Source: Patescibacteria group bacterium (GTDB taxonomy: Bacteria > Patescibacteriota > Patescibacteriia > 2-02-FULL-49-11). Taken from it: DNA of 64,000 bases. A program made the position numbers and the translations under genes. This document shows, piece by piece, positions 7,151 through 62,425 of this stretch. How positions within the stretch are numbered: position 1 is the first letter of the stretch; the number at the start of each line of letters is the position of its first letter. Location: the NCBI GenBank assembly GCA_041645165.1, contig JBAZQN010000010.1, positions 102-64,101 of the forward strand, read 5' to 3'. The notes under the pieces were generated by a model. It was not told where the DNA came from, did no database searches, and was given only the letters and a program-made list of their open reading frames with translations.

Positions 7151-7245
7151 TAATTCTCAATGCATCAATATTTCAATGTTTGAAAATTGAATCATTGGAG
7201 CATTAATTGTAAATTGAGAATTGGAAATTGAAAATTTTATCATGT

Positions 7246-7559: not shown

Positions 7560-10328
7560 TTGAGTATAGTTGATAATTTCATCCAACCGCCGCATACTGA
7601 TAACATGAATACCCTTTCTCTTTCTGATTCTCTTGCAGAACTCGGGCCCATGGGAAAACGGCTGAGCTCCCGTTTGAAGAGCCTCGGCATTATGAGCATC
7701 GAGGATCTGCTCTTTCACTATCCCTTCCGCTACGAGGACTGGTCTCGAGTTCTGCCTATCAAAAATCTCATCCCCGGCATGCAAGCCACGGTGAGCGCGA
7801 CGGTAAAAACTATTTCATTCCGTCCCGGGCGATGGAAGATAAAACCGCTCATTGAAGCGCTCCTTGAGGACCAGAACGGCGATCACATTCGCGCGGTATG
7901 GTTCAACGCGTCATACCTTATTAAAACCCTTACCCCGGGCACCGCGCTTCTGCTTTCCGGAAAAATTGACCGCTCAAAAGACGCGCTCCAACTCACCCAT
8001 CCCGTATGGGAAAAAAACACAACTCACGCCCCAATGCATACCGCGCGTATTATCCCGATTTATCATGCGACGAACACCATAAGCCAAAAACAGATCCGCT
8101 CGCTTATGGCAGTTTCTCTTCAAAATATCCCCTCCATCCCTGATCCGCTTCCCTCGTGGATAGCGTCAGGCGCCAAAATCATCCCTCTTGATCGCGCGAT
8201 CCGCGCCATCCATTTCCCGTCCACGTGGGCGGCTTTGAGTGCGGCGCAAACGCGGCTGAAATTCGACGAATTATTCCTTTTACAACTGCGCAGCGCGCTT
8301 GCCCGACAGGAGCTTACTGCGCTTAAAAGTACCCCCATTCCGTTCCATGAGACTCTTACGCGCACATTCGTTGCCCGTCTCCCTTTCAAGCTCACCACCG
8401 CACAGAGAAAAGCCGCCTGGGAAATTATTAAAGACCTCGGGAAGGGCAAGCCGATGAACCGCCTCCTGGAGGGCGATGTGGGATCGGGAAAGACCGTGGC
8501 CGCCGCCATTGCCGCCTTAAATGTGATTGCGAGCGGCCATCAGGTCGCCTATCTTGCGCCCACCGCCATACTCGCGGCACAGCAGTTCGCGACGTTTTGC
8601 CGTCTTTTTTCCGACACCCCCCTATGTCCCCCCCTTACGAAGGGGGGGAACGGGGGGGTCTTCACCATCGCGCTCATCACGCAGGGGGATATCAGGGTGA
8701 ATAAAATTCAAAGTTTCCCGCCTCAGCGGGATCCCGCATACCTTAGAGAATCAGATTCAAGGGGCGGGACAAAACCCAAAGTTCAAAATGAGAGAGGGTA
8801 TAAAAAAATTTCTAAGCAGGAGCTTGCAGTACTGTTAAGAAAAGGGAGAGTCGACATTTCGATTGGCACACATGCTTTACTTTCTGAACATATCCAATTT
8901 CAAAAACTGGCACTGGTCATCGTCGATGAACAGCACCGTTTCGGCGTCAACCAGAGAGCTGCGCTCCTGCGCAGATCAGCGCAGATAAAAACGCAGATAG
9001 ACGCAGATGCTGATGACTTTCTATATAAGGAATTGACATATCAAATAAGAGGAGCAGCATTTGAAGTGGCAAATAGCTTAGGCCTCGGTTTGAAAGAAAA
9101 TGTGTACCAAAAAGCACTTGAAGAATCATTAAAACAAAAAAGGCTCTTATATGAGCGAGAAAAATCAATTAATGTCTCATTCCACGATACGCGCGTGGGC
9201 AGCTTTAAGCCTGATTTTATTATTGACCAAAAGGTTATCGTAGAACTTAAAGCACTACCTTTTATTGGTAAAATTGAAGAAAAGCAACTCTGGAGTTACC
9301 TCAAAGGTTCAAATTACAAAGTTGCGTTACTCATCAATTTTGGCAACGATAAACTGGATATCAGAAGAATAATCTACGACACCGCGAGAGATAAAACGCC
9401 CCAACCGTCACCAAATCAGCATGCATCTGTGATTAATCAGCACATGTCTGCATCAAGTGATCTGCGACCATCTGCGTCTCATCTGCGTGAATCTGCGTAT
9501 GTGCCGCATCTGTTGTCCATGACCGCCACTCCCATTCCCCGTTCGCTTGCGCTGGTCGCCTACGCGGACCTAGATTTGTCAATCATCAATGAGCTGCCCA
9601 AAGGCCGCGCGCCGATTACCACTAAAATCATCCCGCCTGAACAACGGCAAGACGCGTATAATCTCATCAAGCAAGAGCTCTCATCCGGTCATCAAGCATT
9701 TATCATTTGCCCGCTCATTGATCCTTCCGATGCCTTAGGCGTGAAATCGGTGAAAGAGGAAGCAGAGCGCTTGAAACGAGAACACTTCCCCCATGTGAAT
9801 CTCGCCGCGCTCCATGGCCGCATGACGCCTGCGTCAAAAGACAAGATCATGGGCGCGTTTGCACAAGGAAGTATCCAGGTGCTGGTATCCACGCCAGTGG
9901 TCGAAGTGGGCATTGACGTGCCGAATGCCACGGTAATCCTTATAGAAAGCGCAGAACGGTTTGGGCTGGCGCAACTCCATCAGCTCCGCGGCCGGGTGGG
10001 AAGGAGCACCCACTCCTCGTGGTGCTTGCTCGCGACCGAAACAGAACAAGAGGAGGCGTTGAAACGCCTCCACGCGGCGGTCTCCTCCCGCGACGGCTTT
10101 GCGCTCGCCGAAATTGACCTAGAGATGCGCGGACCGGGAGAAGTGTACGGCACCCAGCAATCCGGCTTCCTCGACACTTTAAAAATCGCCAAGCTTACCG
10201 ATGTCATCATCCTTAAGCAATCAAAAGAGACGGTTGCCCGCCTCCTCCAAGAAGATCCCGCGCTTTCCCGCTACCCCTTACTCCAGCGCCGCCTCGCCGT
10301 ATTCGAGGAATCAGTGCATTTTGAATAG
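7560..10328 (+). CDS. recG: ATP-dependent DNA helicase RecG carrying three in-frame repeat or domain insertions
   Basis: Wedge N-terminus. Walker A GDVGSGKT. DEQH. TATPIPRS. RGRVGR. 922 aa against the ~700 typical of RecG, which is my recollection rather than a measured comparison. Confidence 0.85.
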   Translation: MSIVDNFIQPPHTDNMNTLSLSDSLAELGPMGKRLSSRLKSLGIMSIEDLLFHYPFRYEDWSRVLPIKNLIPGMQATVSATVKTISFRPGRWKIKPLIEALLEDQNGDHIRAVWFNASYLIKTLTPGTALLLSGKIDRSKDALQLTHPVWEKNTTHAPMHTARIIPIYHATNTISQKQIRSLMAVSLQNIPSIPDPLPSWIASGAKIIPLDRAIRAIHFPSTWAALSAAQTRLKFDELFLLQLRSALARQELTALKSTPIPFHETLTRTFVARLPFKLTTAQRKAAWEIIKDLGKGKPMNRLLEGDVGSGKTVAAAIAALNVIASGHQVAYLAPTAILAAQQFATFCRLFSDTPLCPPLTKGGNGGVFTIALITQGDIRVNKIQSFPPQRDPAYLRESDSRGGTKPKVQNERGYKKISKQELAVLLRKGRVDISIGTHALLSEHIQFQKLALVIVDEQHRFGVNQRAALLRRSAQIKTQIDADADDFLYKELTYQIRGAAFEVANSLGLGLKENVYQKALEESLKQKRLLYEREKSINVSFHDTRVGSFKPDFIIDQKVIVELKALPFIGKIEEKQLWSYLKGSNYKVALLINFGNDKLDIRRIIYDTARDKTPQPSPNQHASVINQHMSASSDLRPSASHLRESAYVPHLLSMTATPIPRSLALVAYADLDLSIINELPKGRAPITTKIIPPEQRQDAYNLIKQELSSGHQAFIICPLIDPSDALGVKSVKEEAERLKREHFPHVNLAALHGRMTPASKDKIMGAFAQGSIQVLVSTPVVEVGIDVPNATVILIESAERFGLAQLHQLRGRVGRSTHSSWCLLATETEQEEALKRLHAAVSSRDGFALAEIDLEMRGPGEVYGTQQSGFLDTLKIAKLTDVIILKQSKETVARLLQEDPALSRYPLLQRRLAVFEESVHFE
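8616..8661 (+). repeat. G/C-tract palindromic mini-insert inside recG, in frame (encodes ..PLCPPLTKGGNGG..)
   Basis: CACCCCCCCTATGTCCCCCCCTTACGAAGGGGGGGAACGGGGGGGTC. Same family at 15079-15117, 47275-47316 and 59489-59531. Confidence 0.7.
8715..8775 (+). repeat. CGGGATCCCG-core ~60-bp repeat unit inside recG, in frame
   Basis: TTCCCGCCTCAGCGGGATCCCGCATACCTTAGAGAATCAGATTCAAGGGGCGGGACAAAA. Same family at 15428-15490, 23123-23183 and 43921-44028. Confidence 0.65.
8958..9500 (+). mobile_element. In-frame insertion in recG encoding a GxxExxY (PD-(D/E)XK-like) domain, bounded by inverted heptamer arrays (CGCAGAT x4 on the left, ATCTGCG x4 on the right)
   Basis: Left array 8971-9009 and right array 9459-9497, period about 10-11 bp. 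The encoded segment LTYQIRGAAFEVANSLGLGLKENVYQKALEESL...VELKAL...LINFG has the hallmarks of the GxxExxY family and lies between the DEQH and TATPIPRS motifs. Confidence 0.6.
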
Positions 10329-11472: not shown

Positions 11473-11490
11473 AATTGAATTACACCGTTC

Positions 11491-11511
11491 GTTCAATCTT
11501 GCAGATTGAAC
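11491..11511. repeat. REP hairpin GTTCAATCT-TGC-AGATTGAAC plus conserved 3' flank
   Basis: The ~60-nt unit CGTTCGTTCAATCTTGCAGATTGAACGATTGTTTTTATCG.CGAACA..CCGGTA is also at 30436-30500 and 41497-41561. Confidence 0.75.
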
Positions 11512-11598
11512 GATTGGTTTTATCGCCGAACAGGCCGGTAATGCACATAATATCCAAGGATAGAGGCAGACGGTCGAATGGCTGATCAACTCTGCGGA

Positions 11599-11660
11599 TT
11601 CAGTCTGCAAGACTGAACCAACGTTAGTTCTATCTGCGTAAATCTGCGTTACATCAGCGT
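11599..11660. repeat. REP hairpin variant (TCAGTCT-GCA-AGACTGA) followed by an ATCTGCG heptamer array
   Basis: CAGTCTGCAAGACTGAACCAACGTTAGTTCTATCTGCGTAAATCTGCGTTACATCAGCGTTGATCTGCGTCC. Confidence 0.7.
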
Positions 11661-11730
11661 TGATCTGCGTCCATGTCGCCGCCTTCGCGCAATCGGCGCA
11701 TTTTGAGTAAAGCTGATCACGCACTCCTGT

Positions 11731-14553: not shown

Positions 14554-15426
14554 TTAAAATTCAAGCTCTACTAACCTCTCAATCTTTTTCTCCGTAATCT
14601 CTCCCGTCAAACGGTAAGAATTTATAAACAGGGCAGGTATCCCGTCAATATCAAGCGCCTGCGCCTCATCCATGCCCTGATTCACAAGATCAGTGGTCGC
14701 GCGGGTTTCTACACAGCGGTTGAATTCTTCAAGATTAAGCCCTAATTCTGATGCTATTATACCATACTTCGACGCAGATGCTCGCAGATAAGACGCAGAT
14801 TCACGCAGATCGTCGTTCATGACTTCGTCACGGGTCAATTTATCTATAAATTCCCAAAATTTACCTTGATTTTGCGCGCAACGGGCGGCAAGGGCGGCGG
14901 GGCGGGAGGCAGGATCTAAAGGATTCGGGAAATCTTTCCATACCAGATGCGCAGATGGTCGCAGATAAGACGCAGATTCACGCAGATCGTCGCGGATATA
15001 CGCAGATATTTGTTTCACCGCATCGCGGCACACTTCAACCACATGGTCGCAAAATAATACGATATTGACTGGTTCGACACCCCCCTCTTGCATCTCCCCC
15101 CTTTCTAGGGGGGAGGATATTGCTGGCAACACCGGGTCAGTGGGCAATACCGTGGGCGCAAACGGCGTATCTTCGCGCAGAGGCGCTAAAGGTTTAACCA
15201 GCGTGATGAGGGGGTCGCTAAAGGTGCCTTGCGCGAAACTGTCAGAGGCAAGCTCTGACGCTACATTTTGATTTTGGACTACTCTCTCTTGTTGATCGTC
15301 TTGAGACGACACAATGAACCCGAGCGCGCTCTTCCCAACTGCAAGCGCTCCCAAACCAAGGACGGCGAGAGAGAACAGCGTAATAGTGAGCGTGCGCGGG
15401 TGTATTTTCATAACTTTAAATCTCAA
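14554..15426 (-). CDS. DsbA-like thioredoxin-fold thiol:disulfide oxidoreductase carrying repeat-derived in-frame inserts
   Basis: DsbA-like C-terminus GIPALFINSYRLTGEI. Signal/TM N-terminus. Two direct CGCAGAT arrays (14770-14815, 14948-15010) encode DDLRESASYLR twice. G/C-tract insert at 15079-15117. Confidence 0.5.
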   Translation of the reverse strand: MRFKVMKIHPRTLTITLFSLAVLGLGALAVGKSALGFIVSSQDDQQERVVQNQNVASELASDSFAQGTFSDPLITLVKPLAPLREDTPFAPTVLPTDPVLPAISSPLERGEMQEGGVEPVNIVLFCDHVVEVCRDAVKQISAYIRDDLRESASYLRPSAHLVWKDFPNPLDPASRPAALAARCAQNQGKFWEFIDKLTRDEVMNDDLRESASYLRASASKYGIIASELGLNLEEFNRCVETRATTDLVNQGMDEAQALDIDGIPALFINSYRLTGEITEKKIERLVELEF

Positions 15427-15427
15427 A

Positions 15428-15490
15428 TCCTCACCGCTCAGGCGGGATCCCGCATACCTTAGATAAAATAATTCAAAGTGCGGGACAAAG
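15428..15490. repeat. CGGGATCCCG-core repeat unit (intergenic)
   Basis: TCACCGCTCAGGCGGGATCCCGCATACCTTAGATAAAATAATTCAAAGTGCGGGACAAAG. Confidence 0.65.
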
Positions 15491-15525
15491 TTTAAAGCTC
15501 AAATGGATGACAAAACTGCACTAAT

Positions 15526-15897
15526 GTCATCCCGGGCTTGACCCGGGATCCAGAAATAACAATAACACTAAAAATCATCAGAAAGATCTTTCCATCCTGG
15601 ATTTACCTCCTCAATCAAACGCAATTTCCACGCCCGTTTCCACCGTTTCATTTGTTTTTCCCTCGTGATTGCCGCATAGATATCAGAAAATTCTTCATAG
15701 TACACCAGTGTATGTACGTGATATTGCCGGGTAAATCCTGGTACCGCTCCCACCTTATGCTCATCTACTCTGCGTCTAAGGTCGTTCGGTACTCCAACGT
15801 ACAAAGTTCCGTTTTTCTGACTCGCCATGATGTACACGTAATAACTCTGCATGATTTTTGTTTATTTTTTCTGGATTCCTGCCTGCGCAGGAATGAC
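15526..15897. mobile_element. Hairpin-bounded element carrying a GIY-YIG gene
   Basis: Left end GTCATCCCGGGCTTGACCCGGGATCCAGAAA. Right end TTTCTGGATTCCTGCCTGCGCAGGAATGAC. Same termini as the ORF-less copies at 7428-7531 and 44401-44498. Confidence 0.6.
15568..15852 (-). CDS. GIY-YIG nuclease family protein
   Basis: 94 aa, YVYIMASQKNGTLYVGVPNDLRRRVDEH. About 80% identical to the 19200-19484 paralog. Confidence 0.7.
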   Translation of the reverse strand: MQSYYVYIMASQKNGTLYVGVPNDLRRRVDEHKVGAVPGFTRQYHVHTLVYYEEFSDIYAAITREKQMKRWKRAWKLRLIEEVNPGWKDLSDDF

Positions 15898-15949
15898 AAT
15901 GACTGAAAATTGAACATTGAGAATTGAAAATTTCCACACTGTTCTGCTT

Positions 15950-18254: not shown

Positions 18255-18304
18255 ACCAGTATTATTAGTTTTTTACCGCCGCACATGATGGTAATATTCA
18301 ATCC

Positions 18305-18411
18305 GTAGCGTCGGAGCTCGTCTCCGACATCCGTGGTGGCAGACAAGCTGCCACGCTACAATTCCGCGGTTTCAGTCTGCAAGACTGAACCAACTTCTGC
18401 AAGACTGAACC
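18305..18411. repeat. Composite intergenic repeat: three-stem element (GTAGCG[GTCGGAG..CTCCGAC][GTGGCAG..CTGCCAC]CGCTAC) plus tandem REP hairpins plus ATCTGC repeats
   Basis: Three-stem unit also at 36432-36486 (reverse complement) and partly at 30515-30595. REP hairpins at 18370-18390 and 18395-18411. Confidence 0.6.
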
Positions 18412-18429
18412 AACGTTGGTCATTCTGCG

Positions 18430-19104: not shown

Positions 19105-19157
19105 TCAAGATTCATTTTAATTTTCAATTTCAAATTATTCAGTCGGCCTCTTCACTT

Positions 19158-19612
19158 GTCATCCCCGACTAGGTCGGGGATCCAGAAAAAACAATAACAT
19201 TAAAAATCATCAGAAAGATCTTTCCATCCTGGATTTACCTCCTCAATCAAACGCAATTTCCACATACGTTTCCATTTCTTTAATTGTTTCTCTCGCTGGA
19301 TGGCAATTTTTATATCAGTGTATTCCTCATAGTAGACCAGCAAATGTATGTGATATTGTTGGGTAAATCCCGGTATCAGTCCATTCTTATGCTCATCTGC
19401 TCTGCGTCTAAGATCGTTGGTTACCCCAATGTACAACGTCCCATTTTTCTGGCTTGCCATGATGTACACATAGTAACTCTGCATGATTTTTGTTTATTTT
19501 TTCTGGATTCCTGCTGGAGTTTATCCCGTACCGCGATACGGGGCAGGAATGACGAGATAGGGTGGATTCCTGTAGGAGTTTACCTCGTACTGCGATACGG
19601 GGCAGGAATGAC
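19158..19612. mobile_element. Hairpin-bounded element carrying a GIY-YIG gene; right terminus duplicated
   Basis: Left end GTCATCCCCGACTAGGTCGGGGATCCAGAAAAAA. Right end CTGGATTCCTG...GGGGCAGGAATGAC occurs twice (19503-19553, 19562-19612). Confidence 0.55.
19200..19484 (-). CDS. GIY-YIG nuclease family protein
   Basis: 94 aa. Paralog of 15568-15852. Confidence 0.7.
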   Translation of the reverse strand: MQSYYVYIMASQKNGTLYIGVTNDLRRRADEHKNGLIPGFTQQYHIHLLVYYEEYTDIKIAIQREKQLKKWKRMWKLRLIEEVNPGWKDLSDDF

Positions 19613-22450: not shown

Positions 22451-22626
22451 AGTGCTATAAATCCCTTAGTAGGCAATTCCGAACCCTAAATTTATAAATA
22501 TTAGAATTTTCAATGCTCAATTTCCAATTTTCAATCAATGTCTCAATGCCGCAATTTTCAAACGTTTGATAATTGTTTCATTGAAAATTAAATGAAAATT
22601 GAGACTTGAAAATTGAAAATTATCAA

Positions 22627-23058: not shown

Positions 23059-23122
23059 AAACTTTGATAAATCCTAAACTCTCTCGCTACGCGAGATCTG
23101 GCGTAGCCAGATAAATCCGAAA

Positions 23123-23183
23123 TCTCCCGCCCAGACGGGATCCCGCAAACATTAAATTAAGTAAATTCATAGTGCGGGACTAA
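23123..23183. repeat. CGGGATCCCG-core repeat unit
   Basis: TCTCCCGCCCAGACGGGATCCCGCAAACATTAAATTAAGTAAATTCATAGTGCGGGACTAAAC. Confidence 0.6.
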
Positions 23184-30413: not shown

Positions 30414-30435
30414 GAATGGTTATCGGTTTCACGTG

Positions 30436-30616
30436 GTTCGTTCAATCTTGCAGATTGAACGATTGTTTTTGCCGCCACACAGGCTGGTAATACATCGTAT
30501 CGGAATATCAATCTGTAGCGTCGGAGCTTGTCTCCGACTCAACCGATCGTGTGGCCCCTTTAATACAAACTGTCAGGCGGCTGATCAACCCTACAGTTCA
30601 GTCTACAAGACTGAAC
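30436..30616. repeat. Composite intergenic repeat block: REP unit, partial three-stem element, REP hairpin variant
   Basis: GTTCGTTCAATCTTGCAGATTGAACGATTG at 30436-30465. GTAGCGTCGGAGCTTGTCTCCGAC at 30515-30538. GTTCAGTCTACAAGACTGAAC at 30596-30616. Confidence 0.65.
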
Positions 30617-30728
30617 CAACAATGATTGAAAATTTAGTCATTGAAAATTAATTGAAAATTGAACATTGAGAATTGAAAATTGCACTTAGCTTTATTTGAC
30701 ATTGGGATTTGGAAATTGGGATTTTATG

Positions 30729-35732: not shown

Positions 35733-36455
35733 TTATTTTACAATAAACGCCTCATCTTTCACATCCGTAAACACATATTTCTCCGCGGTCATGTACGGCA
35801 CGAACTGCGATTCTTGTTTATCAATAGTAAAGATGATCTCTCCTGCTTTCAGAGGCTTCACCTTGATCCCTGAAAGCAGCCCGCTGCCCGCAAATCCTCC
35901 CTCGCCTCCTTTTGCCCCGGGACCGGGAATAAAGCGCACGATTTCTATCCGCCCTGTAGTCTCAAGCGCACCCGGAGGATTTGCTTCCATAGGCAGGCTT
36001 GTGCCCTTCGCATTTAAACCCTTAAACTCAACCTGCTTCGGATCATAGGTGAGCACCGCTCGCACGACCGTAATATGCGTATCATAGGTATCAAAACGAA
36101 TTTCAACCAATCCTTCTTTTCCCACGCTTAAACTCGTCTTCCCTTCAGGAAGCGATAGGGAAATCGCGCCTTTCAAATCCGGCCGCACGATGGGCGCTGG
36201 TGGTGATTGTCTTTGCGCGGGGAGGGGTGATGGCGGCGCCGGTTTTGGTGGTTTTGGCGTGAAATAATTCACCGCGAGCGCCACTACTACTACCCCCGCC
36301 AGCGCTCCAAGCAGCACAAGAAGGCGGGAAGAAGAACGAGGCTTTGCATCTGTTGATGGAACATTAGTTTGAGAATCTTGTGGAGACATATGATTGATGT
36401 TAATTTTTATAAATAAATGCAAAGTTTCATTGTAGCGTGGCAGCTTGTCTGCCAC
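35733..36455 (-). CDS. Hypothetical membrane-anchored protein
   Basis: The annotated N-terminus is translation of the three-stem repeat. The true start is probably the MSPQDSQTN Met near 36389. Confidence 0.4.
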   Translation of the reverse strand: MADKLPRYNETLHLFIKININHMSPQDSQTNVPSTDAKPRSSSRLLVLLGALAGVVVVALAVNYFTPKPPKPAPPSPLPAQRQSPPAPIVRPDLKGAISLSLPEGKTSLSVGKEGLVEIRFDTYDTHITVVRAVLTYDPKQVEFKGLNAKGTSLPMEANPPGALETTGRIEIVRFIPGPGAKGGEGGFAGSGLLSGIKVKPLKAGEIIFTIDKQESQFVPYMTAEKYVFTDVKDEAFIVK

Positions 36456-36486
36456 CTGTGAGTCGGAGGCAAGCTCCGACGCTACC
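36432..36486 (-). repeat. Three-stem composite repeat (reverse-complement copy)
   Basis: Reverse complement matches 18305-18359. Confidence 0.6.
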
Positions 36487-39500: not shown

Positions 39501-41561
39501 TTTAAGCTCTAGGCATGACGCATACTGCGCGGGGCACGACTCGCCCAAAGACCACACTTGCTTTTCCGTCGCGCAATACCCATACGCCAAGCACCCTGTA
39601 GCTCCCCCTTCCACGATGCAGGAGCGCTGATTCGTGCACACGTTCTCGCGGCTGATGGCAGGGGACGCGATATCAGGAGGGCAGAGAATCGTGCCGTTCC
39701 CGTTCGTGTCAGTGTCGCAGATGGGTAAAGTGGCGAGCGTTACCTTCAGGTCCGCTTCTCCCGGCCCTTCCCGCACGCACTTGGTAAGAGGCGCTTTCAG
39801 AATCCAATTGGGATCTACGAGCCTGCAATATGGAGACAAAAGCCCGCCATTTTGTCCGCACTTGTCATGCGCGTCGAGAAGTTCGCCTAATGTCACGCGC
39901 GTTTGCGCAAAATTCTTGATATAGAGCGCAGCAAGCTCCCAGCCTACGGGCACGATGCGGTACTTGCGCAAAATCACGATGGAACGGTAAGGGATTCCTG
40001 ATTGCCAGTCCGGTTGCGAACCGCCTTGTTCAAAACCAAAGGTAAGATTGCGGGAAAGAAGCCCTTGGCACTTGGGACAGCCCCCTGTCCCTACAGGCTC
40101 CACTGCTTCTCGCACTGACAAATGGGGATTCACGTCAATCGCCAACCTGAACAGTTCCGAAATCACGCGGTTCTCCGGGCCAGTGGTATTGGATGAAAGC
40201 TCCGAGAGCAGATCCACCGCGCTGTCAGTCGTGAAATCTGTCTTCATAATTTCGGCAAATGCGAGCTGCGCGCCCGCGGTAAATCCAATGAGGCCGCTTG
40301 AAGGGCCGTAACTTGACAAAGACCGGTCAGTCGCAGGATTGAATCCGCCGCTGGTAATGCGCTTGAATAGTTTGCTTACTAAAGTGTTCGTGAACACCTT
40401 AAATGCATCAGCGACCGCGTCGCCGGTGAAGAGGAGCATAGGACCATATGGCTTCTTAGTGAGCGCCTCTCTGGTCGACTCGGATACTAGTGTCGTCGGC
40501 GTCTTGAGCTCACCTGTTATTAAATCTTTCACTGGATTAAATCCTTCCCCCTCTTTCCGTTCTAGCTCCTTCGCCGTACGCGCTTTCGTCTGCGCGCTAT
40601 ACCCTTCTGCCACGATGGAGAGCACCGCGCCGATGTCATTCTCCGCAGGATTGAAGTATGTGGCAAACTTGGGCAGGTCTTTGAGCTTCAACTGCTTATA
40701 GTCAGTGCGGAAAATATCCAAACCATTGATGCGCACTGATGTCCGCGGCAGATTTTTCCTGATCTGGCTAAAGGTGCACAAAGGTTTTGAAGGCGCCAGG
40801 ATTTCACGCGCGGTAAGTTTTATTTTCGCTTCAATGTCTACGGATATGGGAGAGCAGAGGGTAAGCTTCTGATGGAGCGTACCGCGGAGTTTAGCTTTAC
40901 TCGCATTACTTTTATCACGCGCAGCCTGCGTCTTTTTATTTTTTATCTGACATTGCATGAGTTTTTCTGCCACTGCCTCGTATTCAGAACTACCAAAGCT
41001 AAGACATAAACCATCACCCTGTAATTCGCTACAACCAGCATTCCCTTGCTCATCAATTTTCCATTTTCCTTGGCAACAGTACTTCGCACACTCCTCTGGC
41101 ATTTCTGGCTTAGTAAGCTCATCAATCGCCACATCAACGCCAGTGGTTAAAAATATTCCCAACGCTTCGTCTTTCGCATCGTCCAAATACTTCTTCCACC
41201 CTTGAGTGATGAACGCGGGCTTCTGGCCTTGCCCTCCGCTTCCTAAATAGCTAGCATAGTCGTAGGCCACCTTATTCAAAAAATACTGCAAACCGCTTTT
41301 ATACGCCACCGCCACTACGGTCTTCAAGGCTTTGTCAATAACTCTCCAGATTGTATCCAAAATAGTCTTCTTTTCTTGAGCGACATCTACTACGACAGCC
41401 TGTGCATTGACATAAGGGATATGTAAAAAAGGAACGACAGCAAAACTCATCGTCACACACAGGAGGGCAATAATCGCGAACCATTTACGACGAGCCACCG
41501 TTCGTTCAATCTTGCAGATTGAACGATTGTTTTTATCGTCGAACAAACCGGTAGTGCTCAT
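36537..41561 (-). CDS. Giant (1674-aa) Cys-rich secreted or surface protein
   Basis: Signal/TM segment WFAIIALLCVTMSFAVVPFL. Cys-rich throughout. The N-terminal 20 codons are translation of a REP unit. Confidence 0.6.
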   Translation of the reverse strand: MSTTGLFDDKNNRSICKIERTVARRKWFAIIALLCVTMSFAVVPFLHIPYVNAQAVVVDVAQEKKTILDTIWRVIDKALKTVVAVAYKSGLQYFLNKVAYDYASYLGSGGQGQKPAFITQGWKKYLDDAKDEALGIFLTTGVDVAIDELTKPEMPEECAKYCCQGKWKIDEQGNAGCSELQGDGLCLSFGSSEYEAVAEKLMQCQIKNKKTQAARDKSNASKAKLRGTLHQKLTLCSPISVDIEAKIKLTAREILAPSKPLCTFSQIRKNLPRTSVRINGLDIFRTDYKQLKLKDLPKFATYFNPAENDIGAVLSIVAEGYSAQTKARTAKELERKEGEGFNPVKDLITGELKTPTTLVSESTREALTKKPYGPMLLFTGDAVADAFKVFTNTLVSKLFKRITSGGFNPATDRSLSSYGPSSGLIGFTAGAQLAFAEIMKTDFTTDSAVDLLSELSSNTTGPENRVISELFRLAIDVNPHLSVREAVEPVGTGGCPKCQGLLSRNLTFGFEQGGSQPDWQSGIPYRSIVILRKYRIVPVGWELAALYIKNFAQTRVTLGELLDAHDKCGQNGGLLSPYCRLVDPNWILKAPLTKCVREGPGEADLKVTLATLPICDTDTNGNGTILCPPDIASPAISRENVCTNQRSCIVEGGATGCLAYGYCATEKQVWSLGESCPAQYASCLELKKAGSDQTVSFLLNTTDAQGCTRVASEGCRRYARRRDAGGWVDSVAAPDNYFLNQSALTMAEAACKEPNAVGCKDYIRLRHRDEAKHLLTAQEYADVLQDVTSDPPTDTYRGTPTPPQQGAPREAESVYLNNTAQSCMGPVGQEGMYAGCALYTPLDPTELQIGIPAKPTMATIAPATNTVSNWNDECPAECVGYKKYEQMQTNFEAGIPITNMPPAPVAQFIPATAHSCPAQDAGCDEFTNLDKVAQGGEGKEYYTELKQCELPGSGEATYYTWEGSDTVGFQLKVWTLIPSGGATSEPAVTGAKIVDSLRSPDGINCQNDFNSLNPDLDCREFIDSNLTYYYRYFSKVIIASDDCHPLRRTLPDAGGWCAQHRGEADANGHCVYQAIPYYSATCAPSSAGCREYRRGDGSNVQQLFSDTFESGSYEPWSPAAGTALSISNEAAVLNNHSLKMAGGTAGSASAYRPGFSVETGRLYNVKFWARADSASTISASLVDSTGQAAVATPASYADSVTTSWKSYTLGPFTATSASPAQVRITVGSTTYIDNVIVQTAQVYAIKDSWYTPETCDQNSQVPPITTVAGAQLNCAAYRQGGTEKTYYFKKFSTLCPERFVGCEALIDTQNSSNPAEQTFYNSNATDRFNSPASIVTVPADALAYLIPSQDAACSANQAGCTLLGQASVAFWNSANGVATSTYADTIVMVDPDTFSDEIGKIGEITSLCTLPEEYCATLTRTDNSSFPSFKDPTGYTCEYETEGTVTTWYQLGTSTPCPTVTSVCSNAPYRSCTNATTQCPEGGTCRPLGFCIGGRAVRDAISGGVTYPKVKNRCLSDADCMDFSRPGSQGLCSNAVARCKPQVSTCTEYQDPRLPEGCSRALVYGQKACSEDGAFACTTDAQCSTTATPPGPGGTCSVSACDFLYVPKDKIQSQLSDCKGELDPEAGCVGLHETGGGPDTIITAKHCSNSPVGNPRPCITDNDCDTGGTCGYQQ
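41497..41561. repeat. REP unit at the 5' end of the giant gene
   Basis: CGTTCGTTCAATCTTGCAGATTGAACGATTGTTTTTATCGTCGAACAAACCGGTAGTGCTCAT. Confidence 0.7.
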
Positions 41562-41652
41562 AAAATCAAAACTGGATATTTAGATTATGCAACTGAACAA
41601 AATCTTGACGTCAGTGGAACAGGCATGCCTGTTCCCTACGATCACTTGGTTC

Positions 41653-41673
41653 GTTCAATCTTGCAGATTGAAC
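41653..41673. repeat. REP hairpin (loop TGC) flanking the RAYT gene
   Basis: GTTCAATCTTGCAGATTGAAC. Confidence 0.75.
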
Positions 41674-41693
41674 CATTGATTTGAAGGACGAAA

Positions 41694-42191
41694 TTAAACA
41701 GGAGTAACCACGATCCTCGTCGGATACCTGCTTGCCGACGACCACCGCCAATCTTCTGGCGCATACACGTATCCTTTGCGCACGGGATTGTTATGAATAT
41801 ACTGCATCTTCTGTCTTAAAAATTCCTCTGACTCAACGAGTTCCGGATAATTTCCGCTCTGCCAGAACTGATATCCTCGCTCGGCCGCGAATATCCTCAA
41901 TACACTCGGTTCGGTTGCGATAATGTTCTTCTGCAATTCTTTCGATAAAAACGTCTTCATGTCCCTGATCACGCCGATGAGATCGCGGGCTGAACCGATG
42001 AAATGAAGGTGATTGAGCATAAAGACGAACGCGTAGATTCTTAATTGTTTCTGCTTTTGGCAATATACGAAACTATCTTCTAAGATTTCAAAGCGATGAT
42101 GGCGGTCAAAGATATAATACCAGTTTTTAACGGTAAACGTCATGAAGTAGACGCCGTCCTTTCCTGCTCTCGGTATTCGTACTGATGGCAT
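41694..42191 (-). CDS. REP-associated tyrosine transposase (RAYT; IS200/IS605 TnpA-like Y1 HUH enzyme)
   Basis: HUH motif NHLHFI. C-terminal YIHNNPVRKGYVYAPEDWRWSS. Flanked by inverted REP hairpins. Confidence 0.7.
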   Translation of the reverse strand: MPSVRIPRAGKDGVYFMTFTVKNWYYIFDRHHRFEILEDSFVYCQKQKQLRIYAFVFMLNHLHFIGSARDLIGVIRDMKTFLSKELQKNIIATEPSVLRIFAAERGYQFWQSGNYPELVESEEFLRQKMQYIHNNPVRKGYVYAPEDWRWSSASRYPTRIVVTPV

Positions 42192-42217
42192 ACTTCATAC
42201 CGCTCATTAAACGGGTG

Positions 42218-42275
42218 GTTCAATCTGCAAGATTGAACCAACGTAATACTATCTGCGTTCTTCTGCTTCTACTAG
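42218..42275. repeat. REP hairpin (loop GCA, inverted relative to 41653) plus ATCTGCG/TCTGCTTC repeats
   Basis: GTTCAATCTGCAAGATTGAACCAACGTAATACTATCTGCGTTCTTCTGCTTC. Confidence 0.75.
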
Positions 42276-43903: not shown

Positions 43904-43920
43904 TAGAAAAAATTTTCAAT

Positions 43921-44028
43921 TTCTCCCGCTTAGGCGGGATCCCGCTGACATTTAAAGAAAATGATCAAAGAGCGGGACAATTCTCAATTTTTCCCGCTTG
44001 GCGGGATCCCGCTGTGGCGGGACATTCA
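43921..44028. repeat. Two tandem CGGGATCCCG-core repeat units
   Basis: TTCTCCCGCTTAGGCGGGATCCCGCTGACA...AGCGGGACAA, then TTTCCCGCTTGGCGGGATCCCGCTGTGGCGGGACA. Confidence 0.6.
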
Positions 44029-44093
44029 ATGACTCAATGATGCAAATGATTGAAAATTGAAACATTGAAAATTATTTGAAAATTGTAAATTGG

Positions 44094-44822
44094 TCATTGA
44101 ACATTTAGTCTGAGTGACCCTACTCGCAATACCCTCACTGAACCATCAGTATTTACTTGAACGACAGTTGAAGGCTTCCTCCTCAGCAGTGTTCCCCCAT
44201 CAATGACGAGGTCTGGTTTAAATTTTTTTCCGCTGAATGCGCGCACTGTCGCTGATGCGCTATAGAGCGCTTGCGTGCCGGAAACATTCGCGCTTGTGGC
44301 GATGAGGGGTTTGTCTAATCCACAAACGAGCTTGTGGGCGATTGGGTGCGGCGAGATGCGGAGGGAGAGTGTAGGGATAGATCTCGGTTCACTATTCACC
44401 GTCATCCCGGGCTTGACCCGGGATCCAGAAACAAAAACAAACAAACCCGCGCGATTTTTGTTTTTTCTTGTCTGGATTCCCGCCTGCGCGGGAATGACAG
44501 TTGTTTGAACGTATGAAGATGCGCGTTTCAACGGCAACACCAAAGATAACGGCCCCGGCCAATAGTGCCGTGCGAGCCGACGGGCAACAGGAGAAAATAC
44601 TACGTAACGCTCTGCCATTGACCTTGAAGCAACGATGACTGACAGCGGCTTTCCCTGCGGCCTTTGTTTGATGCGCCTTACTTTCATATGAACCTTCGGG
44701 TTCGTCCAATCACCGCCCAGACCATACGAAGTTTCGGTGGGAAAGGCCACCACGCCACCCTCACGGAGCACTCTTAATGCCACGCGAAGTAGTATCGGGT
44801 CATTAACTGAAATTACCTTCAT
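44094..44822 (-). CDS. tsaC: L-threonylcarbamoyladenylate synthase (TsaC/YrdC) interrupted in frame by a ~98-bp hairpin-bounded mini-element
   Basis: PTETSYGLG. HYWPGPLSLVLP. ATSANVSG. Inserted segment TTVIPAQAGIQTRKNKNRAGLFVFVSGSRVKPGMTV is encoded by the element at 44401-44498. Confidence 0.75.
   Translation of the reverse strand: MKVISVNDPILLRVALRVLREGGVVAFPTETSYGLGGDWTNPKVHMKVRRIKQRPQGKPLSVIVASRSMAERYVVFSPVARRLARHYWPGPLSLVLPLKRASSYVQTTVIPAQAGIQTRKNKNRAGLFVFVSGSRVKPGMTVNSEPRSIPTLSLRISPHPIAHKLVCGLDKPLIATSANVSGTQALYSASATVRAFSGKKFKPDLVIDGGTLLRRKPSTVVQVNTDGSVRVLRVGSLRLNVQ
44401..44498. mobile_element. ORF-less hairpin-bounded mini-element inserted in frame in tsaC
   Basis: GTCATCCCGGGCTTGACCCGGGATCCAGAAAC...TCTGGATTCCCGCCTGCGCGGGAATGAC. 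Confidence 0.65.
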
Positions 44823-44984
44823 ACGCTAAGCGCGGTGGAAATCCCAATACCCAAACCCCAATGACCAATTAAATCCCAATTACCAATACCAAAATTGAGC
44901 ATTAGGGAATTTGAGCATTGATTGAGCATTGGACATTGGAAATTGGTCATTAATTTGACATTTGAAATTTGTCATTGAGATTTC

Positions 44985-47900
44985 TCAATCTTGTGTAACA
45001 AGATTGAGCAGTTTCCCTTTCACATACACCTTCCTCGCCACCTCTTTTCCTTTCAAATACTTCTGAATCTCGGGCAGTGCGTTTGCCGCCGCATATACCT
45101 CTTCTTCTCCCGCATCGCGGGACACTTCTGCCACTCCCCGCTTCTTCCCATCGATCTGTATGACCACCTGCACAGTCTCCTGTGTCATCAGCGCGAGATC
45201 AAAAGCCGGCCACGGCTCTTTGAAAATAGACCGTGCGTTGCCAAGCTGTTCCCATAACTCTTCCGTGATATGCGGCGCAAACGGCGCAAGAAGAATGAGG
45301 AGCGCCTTGTAGCCGGATAAAGTATCAGCGCGGTCTTCAAGGGCAGGTAATTCGTTCGTGTACGTCATGAGCTGTGCGATCGCAGTATTAAATTTAAACG
45401 CTTCAATATCTTCTGTAACTTTCTTAATCGTCTGATGCGCCAAACGCGCAAGCGCGTCGCTTTTAAACGCACTTACTACGCCCTTAAACGCCTGCGTATG
45501 AATGCGTGGTGAATGCGTATGAATGCGGGTCCCCAAGGACCATACGCGCTCCAAAAACCTCCTTATCCCTACGATGCTGCGCATGCTCCAAGGTTTTGCA
45601 TCTTCAAACGGGCCCATGAACATTTCATACAATCGCATAGTGTCTGCGCCGTAGATTTCGATGACTTCATCGGGATTGATGACATTGCCTCGCGATTTCG
45701 ACATCTTTTGCCCGTCCTCTCCCAAGATCAGCCCTTGATTTTTTAACGTAAGGAAAGGCTCGTCAAAATCAATAATCCCCAGCCAATGCAGCACCTTGGT
45801 AAAAAACCGCGCATACATCAGATGCATGACTGCATGCTCTGCCCCGCCGACATAGAGGTCTACCGGAAGCCACGCATGAATCTTCTCGCGGCTTGCAAAT
45901 TCTTTCGCATTGCGAGGATCCGTATAGCGGAAAAAATACCAGGAAGAGTCCACAAAAGTATCCATCGTATCGCACTCCCTCCGCACGTCTTCGCCATACG
46001 AACCGCACTTGGGGCATCTCACCTCATGGAATTTTTTTGACCGCTTAAGAGGCGACTCCCCCGTAGGCCGGAAATCAACATCATCAGGCAACCGCACCGG
46101 TAGATCTTTTTCCGGGACCGGCACCTCACCGCACTTCACACAATAGATAATGGGAATCGGCGCTCCCCAATAGCGCTGACGCGAGATGAGCCAATCACGC
46201 AGACGATAGGTAACCTGCTTCCTGCCAAACTTTTCTGCCATTTTTAAAAGAGCCTCTTCCGACGACAGTCCGGTAAACTCCCCCGACTCGACAAGCATCC
46301 CGTGTCCTATATAACATCCTACATCCATAACCTCCTTGAGTAATTCCGGAAATTCAAGGGTCCCCATATCTTTCATCGTGAAATGTCCCCGTCCTTTTAA
46401 TTCTCTCAGTTCAGCGTTTAATTCCTTCGCATACCACCGTGCACTTTCCTTGCGGTATTCTTCTTCATTGTCGGAAATAAAGATGATAATTTTTCTCACC
46501 TGATCCTTAATCTTTGGATTTATGTCAAAATCATATAACGGACCAAGACGCTGACGATTCTCGGTGATGGTTTTCCTACCAGGCGCCACCAAAAGGAGGG
46601 TATCAATTTTTGCATCCGTCTCTCCCAGCCACCGCACCGCAAATGCGCCGCCCGCGCTATGCCCTATCACTACTGAATTTTCATCTAAGGGAAGGTGTGC
46701 TACCTGCTTTTTCCATTCATCATATTGCGGCTCCCAAGCATTCGGCATGAGTGGATTAAATACCTTGAAACCTCGTTCTTCCAACTTCGGCGTTATCCAT
46801 CCCAACCAGTGATGGGTATTTTCTGGAATATAATCAGCTTTCCCGCGTGGATCAGATTTTGGAGATCCGTGTACCATAAGCACCTTTCTCTCTTTTGGCC
46901 GTATTACACACTTGATCGGCAAATTGAATTTTTTTGCAAACACATAATCCCGCTCGTCATGTGCCGGAACGGCCATAATTGCGCCCGTACCATAACCCAT
47001 GAGCACGTAATCAGCAATCCAAATTGGTATCTCTTCCTTAGTGGCGGGATTGATTGCGGTTATCCCTTGTAATTCAACACCAGTTTTTTCCTTCTGTAAC
47101 TGACCACGCTCCAGTTCAGTTTTGCTTTTAGCGCTCTGAATATATTGTTCAACAAATTTGAAATTTGAAATTTGAAATTTGAAATTTTCAATTATGGGGT
47201 GTTCCGGTGCGAGCACCATGTAAGTCGCCCCAAATAACGTATCCGGCCTCGTGGTGAATACTTCGATCCATAACTCCCCCTCTCCCCCTCTTACCTTAAG
47301 AGGGGGTTGGGGGGCGTTACTCACTATAGGAAATTTTATCAATGCTCCTTCACTTCTCCCAATCCAATTCTGCTGCATGAGTTTGATAGGTTCCGGCCAA
47401 TTAATCTTTTCAAGGCCTGAAAGCAGTCCTGCCGTGACTCGCTTGTTCCTTTTCGCGTCTTGTGTCCGATCCTCGATAAAATCAGTGATTTTGAAAAACC
47501 ACTGCGCAAGCTCTTTCTGCACTACCGTATGCTTGCAGCGTTCGCATTTCCCGTCCACCACTTGCTCGCGCGCGAGCACGGTTTGGCAGTGTGCACACCA
47601 ATTCACCGGGGCTAATCTCTTATAGGCCAAGCCGTGTTGGTAGAGCAAGAGGAAAAACCATTGCGTCCAGCGGTAATAATCAGGATCTGCGGTATTCACT
47701 TCCCGCGACCAATCATAGGAAAACCCCAGCGACTTGATCTGGCGCCGAAAATTTTCAATGCTCTTCGCAGTGGTCTCCGCGGGATGCACACCCACTTTGA
47801 TCGCGTAATTCTCCGCAGGAAGCCCGAACGCGTCCCATCCCATCGGATGAAGCGCCATAGAGCCCCGCATGCGCAAATAGCGGCTCACGATATCGGTGGC

Positions 47901-51068: not shown

Positions 51069-51145
51069 TTTTCAATTATCAATTTTCAATCAATGACCTA
51101 ATGAATCAATTTTCAAACTTTGAACATTGCGAAATTGAAAATTGT

Positions 51146-51205
51146 TTGAAAATTGTCCCCCTTCGGGAGATCCCCCGTAGGGGGAGAAATTGAGCATTGA
51201 AAATT
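51146..51205. repeat. Inverted copy of the ~60-bp intergenic repeat
   Basis: Reverse complement matches 53201-53260 and 7091-7150. Confidence 0.65.
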
Positions 51206-53260: not shown

Positions 53261-53357
53261 CAATATCCCAATGTCATAATTTTCAAACGTTTGATAATTG
53301 TTTAATTGAAAATTAAATGAAAATTGAAGCTTGAAAATTGAAAATTATCAAAACAGC

Positions 53358-59984: not shown

Positions 59985-60358
59985 ACGGTACGATTATTCC
60001 AGTTAGGCCTCTTTACAGTCGGCGCTAACCGCAGACCCGCCTGCCTACGCCAGTTGCGGGGAACGGTAGTATGCTTAATGTTAAAATCTTCCCTGACGTA
60101 CGGAGCGTTCCCGAGGAAAGGCAATGGCGGGCAGGTAAACGCAGATCGTCACGCCCGCCTGCCATAAACCTGTCCACGAGATGAGTGATATCTGAAAAGG
60201 TCGGTACCAACAACGTTATTCTGTTGAACCTTCAAGGAAGGCACTGGCGGGCAGGCTTGACCTTATCGCAGATAAACGCAGATATTCTTCTTACTCATTG
60301 TACGATATTCTCTTATGAGATAATAGAGTATAGAGTGATTGTTTATTGTTCTTAACCA

Positions 60359-60467
60359 AGAAGCGAGGGAATACCAATTTTTCGAGGACTTATGCCTGTA
60401 GTCAGGCAGGCATAAGCGCGAGGCAGCTTAGGTCGCGTCCGCAGAAAAATTGTGTATTCCTGAGCGC
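60359..60467 (+). ncRNA. Conserved ~108-nt structured element (copy 2) ending 6 nt before the methyltransferase start codon
   Basis: See 165-272. Same orientation relative to the downstream gene. Confidence 0.4.
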
Positions 60468-60472
60468 GGAAT

Positions 60473-61342: not shown

Positions 61343-62425
61343 TTACCGCGTTAGGAAACTCCACCAAGGCTTCTTTACTGAAATGACATTTCCGGATTCA
61401 GCACTTACTTTGGTTTCGATCTGCATTGAAACAGGAATTACGAAAAGAAGTTTGGCTTGTTTTGTTCCCTTAACAGAATATATTGGTTGTTGAGATTCTT
61501 CTTTAAGTTCAATTGTGCTAACTTCGGTTCCCGCCGCCACTTTAGATGAGGCTTCTTCTGGCAAAATTTTGATTTCCTTATTTCCAGTTGATGTTTTAAG
61601 GGATAATTTATTCCCTTCAATAACAAGTTTTTCTGTTGTAACTGCAGTTGCTTTTTCAGATTGGAGAGATAGACCATTCGGGACTTTTTCTATGGAGACT
61701 GATTTTACGCCCGATTCTGAAGAAGAAATTTTTGCCTCAATGGGTTTTATTCCCTCTACTGGACAAGTTGTGGTATCTCCGGAACAAGTGCAGCCCACCG
61801 GACATTGTTTTCCCGGACAAGAATAAATTGGACAGCCGTTAGAATCTTTTTGAGCAGTAGGAATTCCACCAACGCAAGCGGTACAGGCGATGGGCGGTTC
61901 TACTGGACAAGTGCAAGTATCTCCGCTTTTCACGCAAGGAGCTTTACAAGATGGCACTGGACAAGTTGTGGTATCTCCGGAACAAGTGCAGCCCACCGGA
62001 CATTGTTTTCCCGGACAAGAATAAATTGGACAGCCGTTAGAATCTTTTTGAGCAGTAGGAATTCCACCAACGCAAGCGGTACAGGCGATGGGCGGTTCTA
62101 CTGGACAAGTGCAAGTATCTCCGCTTTTCACGCAAGGAGCTTTACAAGATGGCACTGGACAAGTTGTGGTATCTCCGGAACAAGTGCAGCCCACCGGACA
62201 TTGTTTTCCCGGACAAGAATAAATTGGACAGCCGTTAGAATCTTTTTGACCAGTAGGAATTCCACCAACGCAAGCGGTACAGGTAACTGAAGTTGTAATT
62301 TGCGTTGGATTTATTTCGATTGATTTAACAGAAGAAACGGTTGATTGAGCGTTTGCTGTTAGAACCAAAAACAAACCGCCTGACAATATCAGAGTTAGTA
62401 ATAAAATGTTTCGTTTCGCATTCAT
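61343..62425 (-). CDS. Secreted Cys-rich protein with three tandem 59-aa repeats
   Basis: Signal peptide. DNA tandem repeats of 177 bp across about 61790-62290. CxxC- and CP-rich units. Confidence 0.5.
   Translation of the reverse strand: MNAKRNILLLTLILSGGLFLVLTANAQSTVSSVKSIEINPTQITTSVTCTACVGGIPTGQKDSNGCPIYSCPGKQCPVGCTCSGDTTTCPVPSCKAPCVKSGDTCTCPVEPPIACTACVGGIPTAQKDSNGCPIYSCPGKQCPVGCTCSGDTTTCPVPSCKAPCVKSGDTCTCPVEPPIACTACVGGIPTAQKDSNGCPIYSCPGKQCPVGCTCSGDTTTCPVEGIKPIEAKISSSESGVKSVSIEKVPNGLSLQSEKATAVTTEKLVIEGNKLSLKTSTGNKEIKILPEEASSKVAAGTEVSTIELKEESQQPIYSVKGTKQAKLLFVIPVSMQIETKVSAESGNVISVKKPWWSFLTR

Follow-up and report, generated by a model that had tools for sequence, protein, structure and literature searches.

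Repetitive extragenic palindromic (REP) sequences and their REP-associated tyrosine transposases (RAYTs) have, to our knowledge, been studied almost entirely in Proteobacteria. The closest described systems are TnpA_REP (RayT/YafM) of E. coli, with its REP sequences and bacterial interspersed mosaic elements (BIMEs), the REPINs of Pseudomonas (Bertels and Rainey 2011), the TnpA proteins of IS200/IS605 insertion sequences (IS608, ISDra2) and the TnpA_Y1 subclass 2.6 (Quentin et al. 2018; Bertels group 5; PMC6006769). Members of this subclass are mostly from Bacteroidetes, have a median length of 179 amino acids (aa), and combine the signatures NH[LIV]H, WQ and YIH[QN]NP with atypical flanking structures lacking GT[AG]G (PMC6006769, Table 1); GT[AG]G-less structures of this sort are a published trait of the atypical subclasses (2.6 and 3), and the class 2 motif is Y...NP as opposed to Y...Q (PMC6006769). 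Here we analyze 64,000 nucleotides (nt) of contig JBAZQN010000010.1 (assembly GCA_041645165.1) from a Patescibacteria group bacterium, a stretch we refer to as the window. It contains one copy of a RAYT, an HUH/Y1 single-strand DNA endonuclease, and a dispersed set of cognate REP hairpins, and the two very probably constitute a REPtron.

A RAYT gene bracketed by inverted hairpins

A first, sequence-only reading of this DNA had proposed a RAYT gene on the strength of an HUH motif and a RAYT-type C-terminus in a 165-aa open reading frame (ORF), and family model, motif alignment and predicted fold all agree with that call. The RAYT-specific NCBIfam equivalog model NF047646 scores 99.9 bits on the protein against a cut-off of 80, and matches all 58 of the aligned homologues. 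The Pfam model Y1_Tnp, which had been suggested as the check, stays below its threshold (19.1 versus 23), which is why the RAYT-specific model was used in its place. The protein carries the motifs NHLHFI (residues 60-65), FWQ, YIHNNPVRKGYV (131-142) and DWRWSS (147-152), with the HUH motif formed by H61 and H63 in NHLH and Y131 in YIHNNP as the candidate catalytic tyrosine. All three residues are invariant across the 58 homologues, as are N60, W110, N135, P136, W148, S151 and S152.

Structural comparison leads to the same family. A phmmer search against PDB sequences returned E. coli TnpA_REP (4ER8) as its sole match, and in the alignment EHMHCI lies over NHLHFI, DYIYINP over QYIHNNP and DYIYINPVKHGW over QYIHNNPVRKGY, so that HUH and tyrosine are in register. 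The AlphaFold (AF2) model of the protein (pLDDT 90.8) has 4ER8 as its best PDB match in Foldseek (E 1.3e-8, TM 0.64), with the IS608, ISDra2 and IS200 transposases ranking behind it at E values around 1e-4. NHLH, FWQ and YIHNNP match the subclass 2.6 signatures, and at the motif level the protein fits this subclass, with subclass 2.4 (YIxNNP) as an alternative. Since the N-terminus MPSVRI is conserved, the 165-aa start is correct rather than the 149-aa call of some pipelines. The protein is 100% identical to MFA4873183.1 (WC659_04580), encoded on a 70.9-kb contig of a Patescibacteria metagenome-assembled genome (MAG). Its gene is the only RAYT copy within the window and has no tnpB beside it; the neighbouring genes encode a TSP3-repeat protein on one side and a 1674-aa protein on the other.

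Inverted hairpins bracket the gene, as had been proposed; both are exact copies, and the arrangement is conserved among close relatives and more widely in the protein family. The downstream copy, which lies 20 nt past the RAYT stop codon, reads GTTCAATCT-TGC-AGATTGAAC, while the upstream copy has the opposite orientation and a GCA loop, ends 26 nt ahead of the RAYT ATG, and obtains the top score (46.6 bits) from a covariance model built from family hairpins. With filters off, this model finds exactly eight full copies in the window (33-47 bits, four per strand), the best of the remaining distinct sites reaching 10 bits. Pattern matching with up to 3 mismatches likewise gives 8 matches in 64 kb, where 0.05 are expected (0.00-0.05 over the pattern searches). 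The hairpins have an A/T-rich stem of 9-10 bp and a 3-nt loop. Further exact copies start at 11491, 30440 and 41504, and the variants at 11598, 18370 and 30596 (GTTCAGTCT...AGACTGAAC) differ by a compensatory A:T to G:C change. Read on the plus strand, the loop is TGC at 11491, 30440, 41504 and 41653, and GCA or ACA at 11598, 18370, 30596 and 42218. A further copy at 18395-18414 is truncated and has lost its left arm, so that the nine or more dispersed copies counted initially become eight full copies and one truncated one. Every copy lies at a junction of co-directional minus-strand genes between 11.4 and 42.3 kb; the sequence-only reading had placed nearly all of them at such boundaries. An Rfam search of the window returned three tRNAs only and nothing at the hairpins. 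The perfect palindrome (Table 1) that separates the RAYT cassette from the neighbouring REP unit falls in a gap of the alignment with the related loci L121 and L122, so it has no counterpart there.

Table 1. Positions of the RAYT gene, REP elements and other repeats in the window
Feature	Position	Strand	Details
RAYT / TnpA_REP gene, 165 aa	41694..42191	-	NF047646, 4ER8 alignment, 58-homologue alignment, AF2 model
Forward REP upstream of RAYT (coding strand)	42210..42246	-	foot GTTG 42239-42242 on +; hairpin 42218-42238
Inverted REP downstream of RAYT	41645..41681	+	foot GTTC 41649-41652; hairpin 41653-41673
Perfect 20-nt palindrome GGAACAGGCATGCCTGTTCC between RAYT cassette and next REP unit	41616..41635		folds as hairpin
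A-unit	41496..41570	+	hairpin 41504-41524 plus conserved extension; repeat family D9; covariance model 44.8 bits
REP doublet 1	11483..11626		A-unit 11483-11557 (hairpin 11491-11511, forward on +); B hairpin 11598-11618 (forward on -, foot 11619-22)
REP doublet 2	30432..30624		A-unit 30432-30506 (hairpin 30440-30460); nested GTAG-type REP 30515-30538; B hairpin 30596-30616
Composite site	18269..18414		A-unit extension without hairpin 18269-18304; GTAG-type doublet 18305-18359; B hairpin 18370-18390; truncated B copy 18395-18414
GTAG-type REP copies	18305-18359, 36432-36485, 30515-30538, 15241-15264(-)		first two are inverted doublets
Stand-alone GTAG-type REP doublet	36432..36485		folds with outer GTAGCG/CGCTAC stem
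Further ATCTGCG arrays	14773-14810 (-), 14950-15007 (-), 60267-60283 (-), 11632-11669 (+)		period 10-11 nt; two inside ORF 14554-15426
(A/T)TTGAAAATT-like unit arrays	7176-7237, 15897-15933, 22561-22622, 30621-30725, 44045-44106, 44916-44989, 47151-47206, 51120-51156, 53286-53347		intergenic
Repeat of ~60 nt	8704-8787, 15420-15503, 23113-23154, 43912-44012		palindrome GCGGGATCCCGC plus CCCGC...GCGGG hairpins
300-nt repeat	15525-15824, 19157-19456; also 7428-7467, 44401-44440		81% identity; opens with hairpin GTCATCCCGGGCTTGACCCGGGATCCAGAAA
Three tandem 198-nt repeats	61758-62351		100%, 100%, 77% identity; inside ORF 61343-62425(-)
121-nt direct repeat	156-276, 60351-60471		89% identity; copies 60 kb apart, near both window ends

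Dispersed hairpins, doublets and strain differences

The same arrangement recurs well beyond the window. We surveyed 80 metagenomic loci encoding RAYT homologues (54-73% identity, 314 kb in all); here and below, L-numbers denote loci fetched from other genomes or metagenomes. A family hairpin lies within 400 nt of the RAYT homologue in 60 of these loci, and on both sides of it in 40. Typically, on the coding strand, a TGY loop precedes the ATG by about 31 nt and an RCA loop follows the stop codon at 25-56 nt, and the window shows this layout too. The generic pattern GTTCA-N4-N3-N4'-TGAAC, with at least three of the four upper pairs formed, occurs 162 times in the 314 kb and 0 times in shuffles. 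The 118 distinct copies compared show essentially no variation in the lower stem (GTTCA/TGAAC), their foot has the consensus G(94%)-C/T-T/G-G(92%), that is, G-Y-K-G, and 94% of them share a T eight positions 3' of the stem. The upper four pairs vary with complementary changes (ATCT, AGTT, ACCC, ATTC, GTCA, GCCT and others). It is the position of the hairpins next to RAYT genes that provides independent support for the link between the two.

Many copies are found away from any such gene. When one genome per species was scanned for the pattern GTTCARTCT-KSM-AGAYTGAAC, at least 120 matches emerged; among those listed, 33 are from Chloroflexota, 37 from Desulfobacterota/Syntrophales, 33 from Planctomycetota, 7 from Nitrospirota/Nitrospinota, 3 from Patescibacteria and 7 from other groups. 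The fetched block holds no RAYT for 116 of the 120 matches listed, which indicates dispersed, gene-less hairpin copies. A variant with a GGA/TCC loop between GTTCAGTCT and AGACTGAAC was seen in MAGs labelled Methanosarcina, Methanobacteriota and Desulfitobacteriaceae (L052 145-165, L067 3072-3092, L068 1545-1565). The flanks of these three copies are alike among themselves and unlike the rest, and we did not count them as spread to archaea; they are probably a different element or come from wrongly binned contigs.

Within the window, three hairpins belong to a longer conserved unit, here called the A-unit, which starts at 11483, 30432 and 41496. Its copies are 75-89% identical, and the unit had been recognized earlier, though its size is 75 nt and not about 60. 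Two of the A-units pair with a second, inverted hairpin to form doublets whose feet face outward. These pairs join two subtypes: an ATCT stem with a GTTC foot at 11491 with a GTCT stem and a GTTG foot at 11598, and likewise 30440 with 30596, the orientations being those assigned by the covariance model. The order along the minus strand is the same at every site, namely the preceding gene's stop codon, forward REP (GTTG foot, GTTCAGTCT stem), spacer, inverted REP after the conserved extension of the A-unit, and start of the next gene. We also considered whether these doublets form long REPIN hairpins and rejected this: across spacers of 86-135 nt only two local hairpins fold, and the doublets are for this reason BIME-like rather than REPIN-like, an arrangement for which the sequence-only reading had proposed a test.

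The doublets and the RAYT cassette have common end sequences, ACGCAGATAG-n5-A-CGTTG-hairpin on the left and CAAT[CG]-hairpin-GAAC on the right. Similarity among copies ends exactly after GAAC on the right and at about the foot on the left (30.6-kb copy versus the others). With these same two ends, the doublets at 11483-11626 and 30432-30624 resemble cassettes without the RAYT gene. In all four cases seen, doublets lie immediately upstream of a start codon, at a distance of 0-18 nt.

The unit at 41496 goes further, in that it abuts the 1674-aa coding sequence in frame. Three copies had been described as abutting or partly translated into the 5' ends of genes, but of these only this unit truly lies within a real reading frame; the units at 30432 and 11483 end 18 and 10 nt upstream of start codons, and the corresponding frame runs into TGA in the former, where the ATG is also shifted by one base, and into TAA in the latter. 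In L121 and L122 (about 86% nt identity to the window) the unit 41496-41570 is absent from the orthologous locus, and homology to the window restarts exactly at GCTCGTCGTAAA, right after the final bases of the unit, ...GAACGAACGGTG. The large protein starts with MLKARRKF in these relatives and with MFLRPPRK and MLLRHRKQ in outgroups, all short N-termini. Translation has to include the conserved ARRK n-region, which places the start of the window gene within the REP unit; the options there are an ATG at 41561, a TTG, or the GTG at 41498-41500 formed by the last three bases of the unit. The REP unit has taken the place of the ancestral start of this large gene for a secreted protein, both ribosome-binding region and ATG, and supplies the start codon now; the N-terminus of the annotated 1674-aa call, MSTTGLFDDKNNRSICKIERTV, is accordingly REP-encoded.

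The window also contains a second, canonical GTAG-footed REP family, GTAG-CGT[CG]G[CG]AG-CTYGY-CT[CG]C[CG]AC, with six copies. Its doublets at 18 and 36 kb both fold as a long REPIN hairpin with the outer stem listed in Table 1, and two GTTCA composite sites, at 30.5 and 18.3 kb, have copies nested within them. The number of GTAG-type doublets differs (1 versus 3) between samples whose neighbouring 217-aa protein is identical (L206 4756-4981). No GTAG-type REP was found in the other 204 fetched loci, including the 80 RAYT-homologue loci and L121/L122, and no cognate RAYT for this family is visible in the 64-kb window.

Comparison with relatives shows single REP units present in one strain and absent in another, as the sequence-only reading had suggested might be seen. 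In L121 and L122 the order KsgA, 223-aa gene, RAYT and large protein is kept, and so are both flanking hairpins; the missing unit at 41496 is one polymorphism. Another is a hairpin indel: L207 and L209 (82% aa identity) carry the full composite downstream of the 217/224-aa gene, from which the inverted hairpin, precisely 30 nt, is missing in the window (at about 18267/18268 in the comparison with L207). At the junction the window reads ...GGTAAAAAAC followed directly by TAATAATACTGG, whereas L207/L209 read ...GATAAAAAAC, AAATCATTCAATCCGCAAGATTGAACGAAC and TAATAATACTGC in succession, and the right end of the indel is the element boundary after GAAC. In a more distant relative (L210 and L211, 37 kb syntenic, 61-76% aa identity) the RAYT, the GTTCA hairpin and the GTAG-type REP are all absent. 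The RAYT slot in this relative and in L212-L214 holds a PF05635 gene, and a search for an empty site by aligning the slot with L211-L214 yielded none, this different small gene sitting there.

Over longer distances the RAYT family has moved between phyla. The source names of homologues at 56-71% identity include Kuenenbacteria and other Patescibacteria, Smithella, Brocadiaceae/Jettenia/Kuenenia and Nitrospirota. Smithella and Patescibacteria RAYTs are 61-69% identical, inside the Patescibacteria-internal range of 59-86%, and Nitrospirota and Brocadiaceae RAYTs are 75-78% identical; the Smithella and Nitrospirota values imply transfer between phyla. No vector was found among phage records, known plasmids and viral contigs: the phage records gave no RAYT match, the viral contigs one distant match (34% identity) without the hairpin, and the plasmids only matches of at most 39% identity, to three Bernardetia, one Persicobacter (Bacteroidota) and one Salinivibrio.

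Weighing a REPtron against alternatives

The combination of a RAYT family member, its bracketing hairpins and their dispersal is what makes a REPtron the favoured explanation, and homology to TnpA_REP and IS608 suggests how it would work. The RAYT would bind the hairpin in single-stranded DNA, recognizing it by its 5' G-Y-K-G foot and its near-invariant lower stem (GTTCA/TGAAC), and would cleave and rejoin beside the foot by means of Tyr131 and a metal held by His61 and His63. The mobile unit would run from foot to foot (GTTG-hairpin ... hairpin-(C/G)AAC), with the RAYT gene inside one such unit, and the 140-190-nt doublets at 11.5 and 30.5 kb would be RAYT-less mini-versions moved in trans. 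The family, motifs and fold of the protein, the conserved bracket, the dispersal of hairpins at gene junctions, the strain polymorphism and the joint absence of RAYT and REPs from a syntenic relative are observed; binding specificity, cleavage position, dependence on single-stranded DNA and mobilization in trans are inferred.

Several observations weigh against this explanation. The foot of these hairpins in the window is GTTG or GTTC, and the canonical GT[AG]G foot is absent. At the positions of the E. coli GTAG-contact residues E100/H101/R104 the window RAYT has P/E/E, so that recognition must differ from the solved complex; the exchange fits a different foot. The pair counts of the hairpin family (98% paired cells, 107 double changes) are descriptive only and partly circular, as just those copies that passed a filter for stem complementarity entered the collection. 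Replication slippage could be an alternative origin of the 30-nt indel, which has a 3-nt microhomology (GTT/AAC) flanking it. Finally, the GTAG-type family, which has no visible RAYT, interleaves the GTTCA units, which weakens any assignment of particular REPs to a particular enzyme.

A more far-reaching version of the REPtron explanation, which we regard as unlikely when taken as a whole, joins these elements into one account. It posits a horizontally transmitted REPtron lineage found in bacteria of anaerobic communities from at least five phyla, including ultra-small Patescibacteria, whose foot-to-foot doublets are RAYT-less mini-cassettes that land just upstream of start codons and are co-opted as portable 5'-untranslated-region or translation-start modules; one RAYT may, on this account, also service the nested GTAG-type REPINs and thus two REP classes.

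Among explanations that dispense with a REPtron, an autonomous IS200/IS605-type insertion sequence fares best, though it too is improbable. Here the TnpA with its subterminal hairpins would copy itself whole and would not be a domesticated RAYT. The HUH/Y1 fold is common to the TnpA of IS608/ISDra2 and to RAYTs, the presence of the family in several phyla implies horizontal movement, and the syntenic RAYT slot carries a different small gene in more distant relatives, all of which would suit an insertion sequence. Yet besides the sub-threshold Y1_Tnp score, the IS200 NCBIfam model matches just 2 of the 58 family members, and the motif is the Y...NP of class 2 rather than Y...Q (PMC6006769). An insertion sequence is also at odds with a single copy in 64 kb without tnpB, with a RAYT that strains about 86% identical keep at one locus, and with listed hairpin loci elsewhere that nearly all lack the gene.

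The interleaved GTAG-type doublets raise the question of whether they are the real substrates of the RAYT, with the GTTCA hairpins serving only to control its expression. Canonical RAYT substrates are GTAG-type REPs, and both the nesting and the variable doublet number fit such a role. However, the residues that would contact GTAG are not conserved in this RAYT, GTAG-type copies are missing from all other fetched loci, and the GTTCA hairpins are themselves dispersed without a RAYT gene, so that we give this possibility little credence.

It is very unlikely that the hairpins are simply host regulatory elements (terminators, mRNA stabilizers or operator sites) whose origin is unrelated to the RAYT. 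Their location at operon junctions is what one would expect of such elements, and A-type copies on the plus strand score as terminator-like, with an 11-bp stem followed by TTGTTTTTAT. This orientation is antisense to the genes, though, the T tract is missing from most family copies, and hairpins occur in both orientations. Moreover, the frequent bracketing of RAYT homologues in unrelated loci (40 of 80, with a hairpin within 400 nt in 60 of 80) and the joint absence of RAYT and hairpins from the syntenic relative tie the two together. The hairpins may still have a secondary regulatory role.

That the 75-nt A-unit is instead a conserved coding leader (peptide TGLFxDKxNRSICKIERTV) of paralogous genes is highly improbable and was rejected: two copies out of three share the position of the ATG, and the one at 41496 continues in frame into the 1674-aa gene, but the other two frames run into stop codons, the peptide is missing from the L121 orthologue and the outgroups, and the genes downstream of the A-units are unrelated to each other.

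Other repeats in the window and relation to described systems

ATCTGCG heptamers, which had been described as often following the hairpins in arrays, turned out to be a separate, independent repeat family. The window contains 36 copies where 10.5 are expected, most of them in four-copy arrays whose period is about 10.5 nt and which lie far from REPs; near hairpins an array is clear only at 11632-11669, besides which a single exact heptamer occurs at 42251 and degenerate copies near 18415. Inverted arrays at 8969-9009 and 9460-9497 flank a complete PDDEXK_3 domain (PD-(D/E)XK, GxxExxY; 119 bits). This domain is inserted in frame in a RecG-like helicase ORF (7560-10328, plus strand), between the DEQH and MTATPIPR motifs, and the RecG of the relative L210 shows no such domain; the insert (8969-9497) looks like a mobile cassette.

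Other repeats are listed in Table 1. The (A/T)TTGAAAATT-like arrays occupy many intergenic regions and may be promoter or UP-element regions; relatives carry similar GGAATTT / AAAGTCAAA arrays upstream of genes. The ~60-nt palindromic repeat lies just upstream of minus-strand gene starts. Slots equivalent to those of the 300-nt repeat hold PF05635 (23S_rRNA_IVP) genes in relatives (L206, L210-L214, L121), and the window ORFs tested have no Pfam match; in the lineage to which the window belongs, small genes seem to move from one intergenic slot to another. By synteny with L206-L210, the REP-bearing array at ~10-24 kb includes a type IV secretion-like cluster, whose genes in relatives match PrgI, TraC-like, VirB4-type ATPase (DUF87/AAA_10/TraG P-loop), T4SS_pilin and DsbA-like thioredoxin families. 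Further along, three proteins of 1195-1674 aa are cysteine-rich.

The RAYT and its hairpins belong to a known kind of system, and the gene family is already under a curated model; what it adds is a new host, a defined consensus for the hairpin, indels found in nature and a start codon donated by a REP unit. When the text of a paper library was searched, neither the window hairpin sequence nor any account of REPs in candidate-phyla-radiation bacteria turned up. A streamlined Patescibacteria genome carrying two REP families is an unusual host, and the RAYT lineage has clearly crossed phylum boundaries while its hairpin kept a near-invariant lower stem. Strains with and without single REP units, a syntenic relative free of both RAYT and REPs, and a precise hairpin indel together provide a natural test system for REP mobility, and the same comparisons could test whether RAYT-REP systems are purely vertically inherited.

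Set beside the described systems, the window locus resembles each in part. With the TnpA of IS200/IS605 elements, as exemplified by IS608 and ISDra2, the RAYT has in common the fold and, by analogy, the chemistry, including subterminal hairpins that would be recognized on single-stranded DNA; it differs in its Y...NP motif, in the lack of tnpB, in its one copy within the window at a locus that close relatives keep, and in hairpins that far outnumber the gene. The inverted doublets with conserved ends, apparent non-autonomous partners of a RAYT present once in the window, recall the REPINs of Pseudomonas, and the GTAG-type doublets even form the long REPIN hairpin, whereas the GTTCA-type doublets, with spacers of 86-135 nt, form two local hairpins in its place. 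Likeness to E. coli TnpA_REP lies in the HUH/Y1 fold with HUH and tyrosine in register, in a gene of about 165 aa between inverted REPs, and in dispersed extragenic hairpins arranged as two-subtype inverted pairs. In contrast to E. coli, the window protein is 18% identical over the structural alignment and does not conserve the GTAG contacts, its hairpins combine a 9-10-bp A/T-rich stem and a 3-nt loop with a G-Y-K-G foot instead of GTAG, and its family spans several phyla. Subclass 2.6 offers the key motifs and atypical flanking structures without GT[AG]G, and the nearest plasmid-borne relatives of the window RAYT, at 39% identity, are likewise from Bacteroidota. Compared with that subclass, the family described here is shorter (165-168 aa) and comes from Patescibacteria, Desulfobacterota, Planctomycetota, Nitrospirota and Chloroflexota.

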